Below are positions 1 through 3,487 of a DNA stretch of 3,487 bases, piece by piece. The stretch's first letter is position 1, and every line of letters begins with the position of its first letter. The DNA is from Escherichia coli. GTDB lineage: Bacteria; Pseudomonadota; Gammaproteobacteria; Enterobacterales; Enterobacteriaceae. Below the pieces are notes generated by a model, which was not told the DNA's origin, searched no databases, and saw only the letters and a program-made list of their open reading frames with translations. The position numbers and the translations under genes were made by a program. Location of the stretch: the NCBI RefSeq assembly GCF_003334315.1, contig NZ_QOWR01000104.1; one strand, written 5' to 3'.

Positions 1-77
1 CTAGTCTAAAAACTAGTATTAAGACTATCACTAACTTAAGTGATACCAACTGTCTGGAGATTCAGGGGGCCAGTCTA
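1..77 (-). mobile_element. IS2-like (IS3 family) terminal inverted repeat, left end, partial; the element continues beyond the window start
   Basis: The reverse complement of 1..77 reads TAGACTGGCCCCCTGAATCTCCAGACA...TATCACTTAA...GTGATAGTCTTAATACTAGTTTTTAGACTAG. From memory this matches the IS2 end that precedes the insC/orfA start (conserved blocks GGCCCC, CCAGACA, TATCACTTAA, internal TAGACT repeat). A few central bases differ from my recalled copy, so it may be a variant or my recall may be imperfect. The terminal base is at about 77, and the element body lies to the left on the minus strand. Confidence 0.7.
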
Positions 78-490
78 GCTTCATTGATTAACGTCAACCA
101 CTCACCGCTGGCGTAGTTTCGTACGTGAGAGGTATCGCGTAATGCTTCTACCGTCTGTAACCAGATGTCGCGCACTGGGTGACCCGGAGACATTACGTCC
201 ATCACAATCAGCCTACCGCCAGGTTTCAATATCCTATTCACTTCTCGCAGTGCTGCACCAACATCATGCCAGTGATGGGCAGAATAACGGCTGATAACAA
301 TATCAAATGCGTTATCGGCAAATGGCAGACTTTCGGCATATCCCTGGCGGGTGGTGATATTTTTCAGTTGCCGGGCTTCGGCAGCTTGTGCCACGACATC
401 CAGCATGTGGGCAGATAAGTCATACGCCACCACCGCGCTCACGTTTTGCGCAGCGCCAAACGTTGGTCTGCCCTGTGGCAGACCTGACAT
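62..490 (-). CDS. yafE: Class I SAM-dependent methyltransferase (YafE-like), 3'-truncated by the IS2 insertion; likely a pseudogene
   Basis: The 142-aa ORF carries methyltransferase motifs: VVAYDLS (post-I acidic residue), FDIVIS (motif II) and LKPGGRLIV (motif III). The last ~4 codons (RLAP-stop) and the TGA stop at 62..64 are encoded inside the IS2 terminal repeat, so the native C-terminus is missing. My recollection is that intact YafE is about 207 aa. ATG at 488..490. Confidence 0.65.
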   Translation of the reverse strand: MSGLPQGRPTFGAAQNVSAVVAYDLSAHMLDVVAQAAEARQLKNITTRQGYAESLPFADNAFDIVISRYSAHHWHDVGAALREVNRILKPGGRLIVMDVMSPGHPVRDIWLQTVEALRDTSHVRNYASGEWLTLINEARLAP

Positions 491-493
491 ACC

Positions 494-1345
<852 letters not shown>

Positions 1346-1350
1346 CTACT

Positions 1351-1379
1351 GTTATAGGGATTTTAGCTCACTCTTTCAA
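1351..1379 (-). promoter_or_regulatory. Candidate sigma70 promoter for yafD(-yafE): -35 TTGAAA, 17-bp spacer, -10 TATAAC
   Basis: On the minus strand, TTGAAA is the complement of 1374..1379 and TATAAC the complement of 1351..1356, with a 17-nt spacer; each hexamer is a 5/6 match to consensus. The predicted transcription start is near 1343, giving a leader of about 50–70 nt to the yafD start. Confidence 0.35.
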
Positions 1380-1400
1380 CGAGCAATTGTATATTGTTAT

Positions 1401-1416
1401 GTAAGCAAGTGCTTAC
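1401..1416. promoter_or_regulatory. Perfect 16-bp palindrome GTAAGCA-AG-TGCTTAC; candidate transcription-factor operator
   Basis: Seven-bp arms that are exact reverse complements, with a 2-bp spacer. It is centred about 65 bp upstream of the predicted yafD transcription start, a typical position for an activator or LysR-type recognition site. Confidence 0.3.
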
Positions 1417-1464
1417 ACCGGTCAGAATTTTGCTCATTATGGAGAACATTAAATCGCATGACAT

Positions 1465-1479
1465 ATCACGCATCCTGAT
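1465..1479. promoter_or_regulatory. LysR-type box candidate ATC-N9-GAT (T-N11-A motif)
   Basis: ATCACGCATCCTGAT is an interrupted dyad that fits the generic LysR-family T-N11-A / ATC-N9-GAT pattern. It sits about 55 bp upstream of the yafC ATG in the divergent yafC–yafD intergenic region. Confidence 0.3.
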
Positions 1480-1534
1480 GGTTTAATGACAAATAAATTC
1501 AAAATATCTCTTCTATTTTGCAACAGGAGCAAAA

Positions 1535-2449
1535 ATGAAAGCCACGTCGGAAGAACTCGCCATTTTTGTTTCGGTCGTCGAAAGCGGCAGCTTTAGCCGG
1601 GCAGCGGAACAATTAGGGCAAGCAAACTCAGCGGTAAGCCGGGCGGTGAAAAAGCTGGAGATGAAACTTGGCGTTAGCCTGCTTAATCGGACCACGCGAC
1701 AACTTAGCCTGACGGAAGAAGGCGAGCGTTATTTTCGTCGCGTACAGTCAATTTTGCAGGAGATGGCAGCGGCAGAATCAGAAATTATGGAGACGCGTAA
1801 TACACCGCGTGGACTGTTACGGATCGATGCCGCAACTCCAGTGGTGCTGCACTTTCTGATGCCGTTAATTAAGCCTTTCCGTGAACGCTATCCGGAAGTC
1901 ACTTTGTCGCTAGTCTCCTCCGAAACGATTATTAATTTGATCGAAAGAAAAGTGGATGTCGCGATACGCGCTGGTACGTTAACGGATTCCAGCTTACGTG
2001 CCAGGCCGTTATTTAACAGTTATCGAAAAATTATCGCCTCCCCCGATTATATTTCCCGCTACGGGAAGCCAGAAACGATCGACGATTTAAAGCAACATAT
2101 TTGCCTGGGATTCACTGAACCCGCTTCCCTCAATACCTGGCCGATAGCCCGTAGCGATGGACAATTACATGAGGTGAAGTACGGTTTGTCATCCAATAGT
2201 GGGGAAACACTGAAACAGCTTTGCCTGAGTGGCAACGGGATTGCGTGTTTGTCCGACTACATGATCGACAAAGAAATCGCTCGCGGAGAATTGGTGGAGT
2301 TAATGGCAGATAAAGTGTTGCCAGTGGAAATGCCATTCAGTGCCGTCTATTACAGCGACCGTGCGGTAAGTACGCGCATCCGGGCTTTTATCGATTTCCT
2401 TAGCGAGCATGTAAAAACAGCTCCCGGAGGAGCTGTCAGAGAGGCTTAA
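1535..2449 (+). CDS. yafC: LysR-family transcriptional regulator (YafC-like)
   Basis: 304-aa ORF with an N-terminal helix-turn-helix typical of LysR regulators ([23 protein letters not shown]) and a C-terminal co-inducer domain. AGGAG Shine-Dalgarno at 1525..1529, 5 nt before the ATG at 1535. Divergent from yafD. Confidence 0.9.
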
Positions 2450-3249
2450 TCCCATTCAGGAGCCAGACCTTCCGGGCTAACCAGGCGGTCGTTGCAATCC
2501 AGTGCGACGATCGCTTTTTTATCTTCGGCATCAAGCTGTAAATTTTGTGCCTTAAGATTACTTTCCAGGTTTTTACGTTTAGTAGAAGAAGGAATTACTG
2601 AGTAACCTTCCCCCATAGCCCACGCCAGAATCACTTGTGCCGGAGTCGCATTGTGTTTAGCTGCGATACGAGCAATAACCTCATCTTTCAGGGCCTTACC
2701 ATACGCCAGCGTCATATAGGAAGTAATATGGATGCCGTGCTGTTTAGCCCAGGCAACCACTTTACGGTTTTGCAGATAAGGAGAGAGTTCAATCTGGTTA
2801 GTAGCGATGTTTTCAGCACCAACAGCAGCAATCGCTTTTTCCATCAACGGGATCGTGAAGTTGGAAATACCGATCTCACGCGTCAGCCCTTGTTTTTTGG
2901 CTTCCAGCAGCGCCTGCATAAACTCTTCAACAGAGACTTCATCGTTTGGTGACGGCCAGTGGATTAGCGTCAGATCAACATAATCGGTACGCAATTTTTG
3001 CAGGCTCTCTTTCAGACTTGGGATCAATTTGTCTTTGCTGAGATTTTCAATCCAGATTTTAGTGGTGATGTAGAGTTCATGACGTGGCACGCCACTTTCT
3101 GCAATCGCCTGACCTACTGCGGCTTCGTTATCATAGATTTGTGCGGTATCAATTGCGCGATAACCAAGTTCAAGCGCCGTTATCACAGATGAAATAACAA
3201 CGTCGTCTTTCAGACGGAAAGTACCTAAACCAAATGCAGGGATAGCCAT
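2446..3249 (-). CDS. dkgB: Aldo-keto reductase, 2,5-diketo-D-gluconate reductase B-like
   Basis: 267-aa ORF with aldo-keto reductase catalytic residues in the expected context: Asp/Tyr in [10 protein letters not shown], Lys in ITTKIW, His in LIHWP. Shine-Dalgarno AAGAGG about 8 nt upstream of the ATG (complement of 3247..3249). Matches my recollection of E. coli DkgB (YafB). Confidence 0.9.
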
Positions 3250-3288
3250 AATATGCCTCTTTTAATGCTATTTTCGTTAACTGAGGTG

Positions 3289-3317
3289 ATTATGGGCTTC
3301 AGACTGTTGAGGAAAAA
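3289..3317 (-). promoter_or_regulatory. Possible dkgB promoter (-10 CATAAT; weak -35)
   Basis: On the minus strand, CATAAT (complement of 3289..3294) lies about 40 nt upstream of the dkgB ATG. The -35 at a 17-bp spacing (TTTTTC) is poor, so this is tentative. Confidence 0.2.
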
Positions 3318-3371
3318 GAGCGTAAAATGCAGAGGATTTTTGCGATTCTGGCAATAATAGATATACAGACG

Positions 3372-3399
3372 AAAAAAAACCTCGAGCGTTAACTCGAGG
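3372..3399 (-). terminator. Rho-independent terminator downstream of tRNA-Asp (end of the rRNA/tRNA transcription unit)
   Basis: On the minus strand: 7-bp GC-rich stem CCTCGAG / CTCGAGG with a 6-nt loop, followed directly by eight T residues (complement of the A-run at 3372..3379). Confidence 0.75.
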
Positions 3400-3411
3400 C
3401 TTCTTAATAAG

Positions 3412-3487
3412 TGGCGGAACGGACGGGACTCGAACCCGCGACCCCCTGCGTGACAGGCAGGTATTCTAACCGACTGAACTACCGCTC
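3412..3487 (-). tRNA. aspU: tRNA-Asp (anticodon GTC), encoded CCA end; 5'-terminal nucleotide lies just outside the window
   Basis: The reverse complement of 3412..3487 matches the E. coli tRNA-Asp sequence as I recall it, lacking only the first G: GAGCGGTAGTTCAGTCGGTTAGAATACCTGCCTGTCACGCAGGGGGTCGCGGGTTCGAGTCCCGTCCGTTCCGCCA. The anticodon loop CTGTCAC contains GTC. The gene symbol assumes the copy that trails an rRNA operon, as in K-12. Confidence 0.9.

Follow-up and report, generated by a model that had tools for sequence, protein, structure and literature searches.

The question raised by this locus is which element has interrupted yafE at the edge of a K-12-like stretch of E. coli DNA and what the interruption means for the gene. 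The window, i.e. the whole stretch of 3,487 nt analysed here, corresponds to the aspU-dkgB-yafC-yafD-yafE locus of K-12 in reverse complement. Over 78..3487 (as well as over 78..600), its identity to MG1655 and to many other E. coli is 100%. The original prediction had taken the first 77 nt for the terminal inverted repeat of IS2, inserted in yafE and likely inactivating it. We propose a modified reading in which a different, rarer IS2-group element sits in what was left of yafE, a gene that this lineage had probably lost before the insertion. The features of the window are as follows.

1..35, minus strand: leader of the IS between its left inverted repeat (IRL) and orfA, untranslated, with two short palindromes
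36..77, minus strand: IRL of the element, which belongs to the IS2 group of the IS3 family; about 42 nt, as delimited by gapped alignment of both ends of the complete sister element; the outermost IS base is 77
62..490, minus strand: truncated yafE ORF of 142 aa, with 138 K-12-type residues (of a 207-codon ORF), after which the IS end supplies RLAP and the stop codon
78..82, no strand: target pentamer GCTTC (GAAGC in the yafE sense), duplicated at the far IS end in sister assemblies
450..455, no strand: scar of an older 221-bp deletion in yafE, with microhomology GCAGC/GCTGC, from the alignment with E. coli S88
494..1294, minus strand: yafD, endonuclease/exonuclease/phosphatase family, intact, upstream of yafE and the IS and transcribed in the same direction
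1535..2449, plus strand: yafC
2446..3249, minus strand: dkgB
3411..3487, minus strand: the other window end, 76 nt of tRNA-Asp (aspU) plus one flanking base at its 3' side
3412..3487, minus strand: tRNA-Asp (aspU), 76 of 77 nt present, one base lost at the window edge

The genes yafC and dkgB are convergent and their 3' ends overlap by 4 bp (2446..2449), which is the normal K-12 arrangement. An Rfam scan of the window found nothing besides the tRNA-Asp.

Foreign and native DNA meet exactly at 77/78, with 1..77 being foreign to the locus. When 1..600 was compared with 5,426 complete E. coli genomes, every best match began at base 78, and the insertion junction was present in none of these genomes, the best coverage being 87%, i.e. 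78..600. In K-12, the DNA to the left of base 78 is native yafE (...CAGATTG|GCTTCATTG..., with the pentamer as CAGATTG|GCTTC), and the uninterrupted target reads ...AATGAAGCCAATCTG.... The ORF in the window ends in ...LINEARLAP*, whereas the K-12 ORF continues as ...LINEANLIV... to residue 207; codon 138 (GC|T) spans the junction and its Ala is retained. In total, 69 C-terminal YafE residues are removed by the IS and, as a result, the C-terminal part of the methyltransferase is incomplete. These data bear out the earlier description of about 138 native codons followed by four IS codons (RLAP-stop) and of GCTTC at 78..82 as the flanking pentamer. They also agree with its view of a strain-specific insertion that sets the locus apart from K-12, since the junction is missing from K-12 and from all 5,426 complete genomes.

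Both ends of the window, 1..77 (IS end) and 3411..3487 (tRNA-Asp and one base), are 77-mers of repeated DNA, and the latter is common to K-12 aspU, aspT and aspV, including the C after CCA in all three. From these ends, the window is most likely an entire short-read contig assembled with k = 77 that stopped at repeat branch nodes of the de Bruijn graph. Because the contig ends inside the IS, the source genome would have more than one copy of this IS end, and the other junction would lie on a separate contig. Thus, the insertion accounts for the stopping point of the contig.

Rather than matching native yafE of other strains, 1..77 match ends of IS3-family elements at 77/77 positions (E = 1e-31). 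Only about 42 nt of this stretch (36..77) are inverted repeat, and the remainder (1..35) is leader, so that the description of all 77 nt as terminal inverted repeat does not hold. With the 77 nt as query, IS2-type element ends were found at 19,135 places in 4,457 genomes; among 6,800 matching records, about 100 reach at least 99% identity, while the bulk, which is true IS2, lies at 90-95%. The canonical IS2 reference used here, K-12 IS2A (NC_000913.3 381260-382590), matches at 70/77 positions, with the differences clustering at IS nt 28-32, 43 and 45. By contrast, the match is 77/77 to the left ends of complete 1331-bp elements in LH09-a (L002), in strain 5270 (L003) and in the sister contigs L011-L014 that carry the same junction. 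In L002 and L003, PGAP annotates an IS3-family transposase with programmed frameshift immediately leftward, on the minus strand.

The complete elements share the overall architecture of IS2 (K-12 insC/insD). Like IS2, the sister element is 1331 bp long, has a left end of TAGACTGGCCCCC... and a right end of the ...CCAATCCA type, and in L011-L014 and L003 it is bounded by imperfect inverted repeats of 42/41 nt. Its orfA encodes 121 aa from an ATG at IS nt 92, which is 15 nt beyond the window edge, and the window is therefore devoid of IS coding sequence. An A6G frameshift site (AAAAAAG) is present at nt 409, again as in IS2, and together with the PGAP call of a programmed frameshift it gives the organization of the IS3 family/IS2 group, with two overlapping ORFs joined by -1 frameshifting, all of it outside the window. 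In the sister contigs, OrfA has HTH_Tnp_1 (PF01527) and OrfB has PF13276, PF00665 and PF13683 (HTH_21/rve/rve_3); a 5-bp target duplication is a further shared property. However, the sister element is only 81.07% identical to IS2A over 1331 bp, short of the near-identity of at least about 95% that would mark IS2 proper, and for the L003 element the identity is 81% against IS2A and 86% against the L002 element. By the ISfinder convention, isoforms have at least about 95% nucleotide identity. The element here, with 81% over its full length and 70/77 in the window, is therefore a different IS and not an IS2 isoform. Judged by sequence identity, it is a member of the IS2 group distinct from IS2 itself, and it is ISEc27/ISEc36-like according to PGAP labels at the family level. 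What persists of the original prediction is that an IS2-type element is inserted in yafE; the assignment to IS2 itself does not.

The 77 nt of the window are common to two or more IS2-group elements and do not separate them. The L002 element is identical to the ISEc27/36-like element over the first 90 nt, with the first difference at IS nt 91, and the two are 86% identical overall. In other words, element ends are more conserved than bodies, and identification from an end alone is ambiguous. The L002 element (LH09-a chromosome, 1247..2577) adjoins IS26 and qnrS1.

The complete element is known from sister assemblies, which we retrieved from Logan read-level assemblies (k = 31; 8 SRA runs) by exact-sequence look-up of the 142-aa product. 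The exact product was found only in Logan contigs, from 8 runs, and these contigs have 0 mismatches to the window over 1153-3391 nt. L010 (SRR1122540) is a 3391-nt contig common to four runs and identical to the window along its full length. The contigs L011-L014 (SRR25039417-20) likewise follow the window without mismatches and then cross an entire element of 1331 bp, with 100% identity to the one in L003. Leftward of the junction, these four contigs carry orfA and orfB, i.e. the insC/insD-like genes that extension of the sequence had been predicted to reveal, and the two genes directly follow in the yafD-yafE direction, as had been proposed for the orientation of the IS.

For the other side of the element, the order expected for a simple insertion is an IS end ...AAGTGTATGGAAATATAGGGGCCAATCCA followed by GAAGC and CAATCTGATAG. 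The right-junction protein was predicted for a simple insertion with GAAGC duplication and then looked up on record. The predicted partial protein, VYGNIGANPEANLIV..., is on record for SRR25039419 and five other runs; it is the V-initial partial form that is present, and neither the M-initial (GTG start) nor the K-initial form is on record. The corresponding contig L015, from the same run as L011, opens with the last 29 nt of the IS at its right end. GAAGC comes next, after which yafE resumes with CAATCTGATAG... and leads into mltD, gloB, yafS, rnhA and dnaQ. Thus, the left (L011) and right (L015) junctions coexist in one run, SRR25039419. GAAGC is present at both ends of the element, as expected from the 5-bp target duplications of the IS3 family/IS2 group, and other copies of this element type are flanked by 5-bp duplications of GGCAC (L003) and GATTA (L002). 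The proposed GCTTC duplication, to be followed at the second IS end by the remaining half of yafE, was accordingly recovered in L015 (one of four runs).

L011-L014 break 1 base past the right IS end and overlap L015 by 30 nt (1..30). A break at this end only implies a branch there, which may stem from a second right-end copy with a flank starting with G, from a mixed population, or from circle-junction reads.

Taken together, we consider it highly probable (about 0.9) that a 1331-bp IS2-group (ISEc27/36-like) element has undergone simple insertion, with a 5-bp duplication, into the 3' half of a yafE remnant on a K-12-like backbone. The complete element and the simple insertion are read from the sister assemblies, which are assumed to share the event with the window; the window itself ends before any transposase sequence and contains one junction. 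A window that ends within the IS, a contig break that implies more than one copy of the IS end and Logan contigs that branch at the right IS end would also fit a rearrangement, either deletion or inversion, mediated by two copies of the IS, in which the yafE 3' half and mltD would not lie beside the other IS end. However, SRR25039419 has both junctions, its 5-bp duplication is perfect and the yafE 3' end runs on without interruption into mltD, gloB, yafS, rnhA and dnaQ; L015-type contigs occur in 6 runs. We therefore regard such a rearrangement as very improbable.

Canonical IS2 (insC/insD) with a few polymorphisms in its end is very improbable. At each of the 7 positions that differ from IS2, the window agrees with another element, to which it matches at 77/77; about 100 of 6,800 records reach at least 99% on the 77 nt, with the IS2 bulk at 90-95%; and in the sister contigs, where the junction is identical, the element has only 81% identity to IS2A, which refutes canonical IS2 for the sister assemblies. 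This stands against agreement of the ends at 70/77, a shared length of 1331 bp, the same gene layout, frameshift position and 5-bp duplication, and the occurrence of IS2 in yafE of Shigella sonnei, 4 bp off. Finally, the foreign part spans exactly one k-mer (77 nt), as is typical of a graph overlap at a contig end, and the 77-nt end might on this ground be an assembly artefact, i.e. a chimeric join or graph overlap next to an uninterrupted K-12-type yafE. But graph overlaps reflect real read adjacency, and independent k = 31 assemblies from 8 runs have the same junction to the base, four of them crossing the whole IS, which makes an artefact extremely improbable.

With a simple insertion as the preferred reading, the IS2-group element would have transposed into the yafE remnant with duplication of GAAGC (yafE sense), its left end facing yafD-yafE such that orfA and orfB would be read in the same direction. 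As in other members of the family, an OrfAB transposase would be produced by -1 frameshifting at A6G, and transposition would proceed by copy-out/paste-in through a circular intermediate. In IS2 and IS911, copy-out/paste-in involves a figure-eight and a minicircle with a junction promoter.

The orientation of the element raises the possibility of transcription from yafD into the IS. In a scan of 1..1560, promoter and terminator counts were no higher than in shuffled sequence, and between yafD and the IS the scan gave no convincing terminator site on the minus strand. With this stretch free of terminator-like sites, transcription could enter the IS, and the proposed read-through from the yafD promoter into the transposase genes is geometrically possible. 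The predicted RNA fold of the junction and leader was no better than those of shuffled sequences (z = -0.93); in this fold, the flanking yafE sequence seemed to pair with the start of orfA, which was put down to chance.

What did yafE lose by the insertion? Two-piece matches indicate that most E. coli have 220-221 bp more than the window at the yafD/yafE boundary, and a comparison with the intact 256-aa yafE of E. coli S88 identifies a 221-bp deletion in the K-12-type allele that is common to the window. Lost with this deletion are the native RBS and start as well as codons 1-62, which encode SAM-binding motif I (VLDMGCGAGH at residues 49-58 of intact S88 YafE). In the window and the K-12 allele, residues 1-62 are replaced by MSGLPQGRPTFG, read from former intergenic DNA, and motif I is therefore absent. 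The annotated ATG of the 207-codon K-12 ORF (488..490) is likewise located in DNA that was once intergenic, and a perfect 8-bp hairpin at 466..485 (GGTCTGCC-nnnn-GGCAGACC) is three bases away. In line with this, PGAP lists K-12 yafE as a pseudogene, 'missing N-terminus'. In Pfam searches, residues 49-145 of intact YafE match Methyltransf_11 positions 1-95 and the truncated protein still aligns to positions 5-95; the remnant residues that fall on its first positions do not correspond to the glycine-rich loop. The K-12 YafE allele has probably lost activity, although Methyltransf_11 positions 5-95 continue to align. That the insertion likely inactivates yafE was overstated, because the K-12-type allele was already without the 221 bp, the start codon and motif I. 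As the older deletion had taken the start and motif I, yafE was probably already dead in this lineage, the functional consequence of the insertion for YafE is probably nil and no phenotype would be expected.

By a rough estimate, about one quarter of complete E. coli genomes appear to share the deleted allele. The 90% protein cluster of the truncated product has 243 members, and the 15 that were listed are 90-200 aa long; variants in the cluster include a premature-stop allele without an IS, an apparent internal duplication and IS hits. Two loci (L020/L021, 2501..3124) have the same deleted allele with a premature stop (156 aa) and no IS, and two others (L022/L023, 2501..3350) have the same deleted allele with an apparent internal duplication (134 aa plus an ORF of 142 or 154 aa), again with no IS. 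These further-broken alleles are consistent with a drifting pseudogene.

A second IS insertion into this remnant is found in Shigella sonnei, where canonical IS2 (99.6% to IS2A) lies in yafE of CP044151.1 (L016, 3418..4748) and CP044191.1 (L017). The two cases are alike in that the same deleted yafE allele was hit in the same orientation with a 5-bp duplication. However, the S. sonnei insertion involves canonical IS2, has CCAAT rather than GAAGC as target duplication and leaves a truncated product of 139 aa. It is thus an independent event by a different IS2-group element. This IS2 entered 4 bp downstream of the site used by the element described here (window ~74..82), and GAAGC and CCAAT overlap by 1 base in the sequence GAAGCCAAT. 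Two IS2-group elements, 81% identical, within 4 bp give a weak hint of a local target preference, being one coincidence in a neutral region. We speculate, as an unlikely idea, that the 9-bp GAAGCCAAT in yafE is an orientation-specific hot spot for IS2-group transposases. The truncated YafE variants P0003 and P0007 contain no IS and look like the products of a nonsense or frameshift mutation and of a duplication, which leaves the S. sonnei insertion as the one case behind the hot-spot idea. If the idea were true, DNA features common to the site could define the poorly understood target choice of IS2-type elements.

With regard to distribution, the complete-genome set has copies of the element with at least 99% identity in no more than 28 records; among the records listed, most are plasmids of ~29-324 kb and a few are chromosomal. 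Chromosomal copies with a transposase labelled 'ISEc27 family' by PGAP share 100% identity with the complete sister element, and mostly plasmid-borne copies labelled 'ISEc36 family' share 99.4-99.8%; both PGAP labels are at the family level. ISEc36 and ISEc27 are IS2-group elements that occur beside mcr-10 and blaIMI on IncF-type plasmids. The literature places ISEc36 by mcr-10 and blaIMI genes, e.g. in the context hsdSMR-ISEc36-mcr-10.1-xerC (PMC9769640). Similar to this hsdSMR-ISEc36-mcr-10 arrangement, one 100% copy of the element adjoins a gene for a type I R-M subunit M (hsdM). In PMC8417528, 'ISEc27' is described as multicopy in K-12 J53 and yafE is not mentioned; this use of the name may refer to IS2-like copies and was set aside as an identification. 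Because most close copies are plasmid-borne, it is reasonable to suggest that the element arrived on a plasmid and then transposed into the chromosome.

The insertion is an ordinary, strain-specific event of an already-known kind, and as a further IS insertion in a decaying gene remnant it carries little biological weight. The junction, which is present in 0 of 5,426 complete genomes and in 8 SRA runs, can serve as a lineage marker. The case also illustrates how naming an element 'IS2' from its end can mask a different, mostly plasmid-associated IS2-group element that has moved to the chromosome. For yafE itself, the insertion follows a broader theme, in which the gene decays across E. coli and Shigella via deletion, nonsense mutation, duplication and IS hits.
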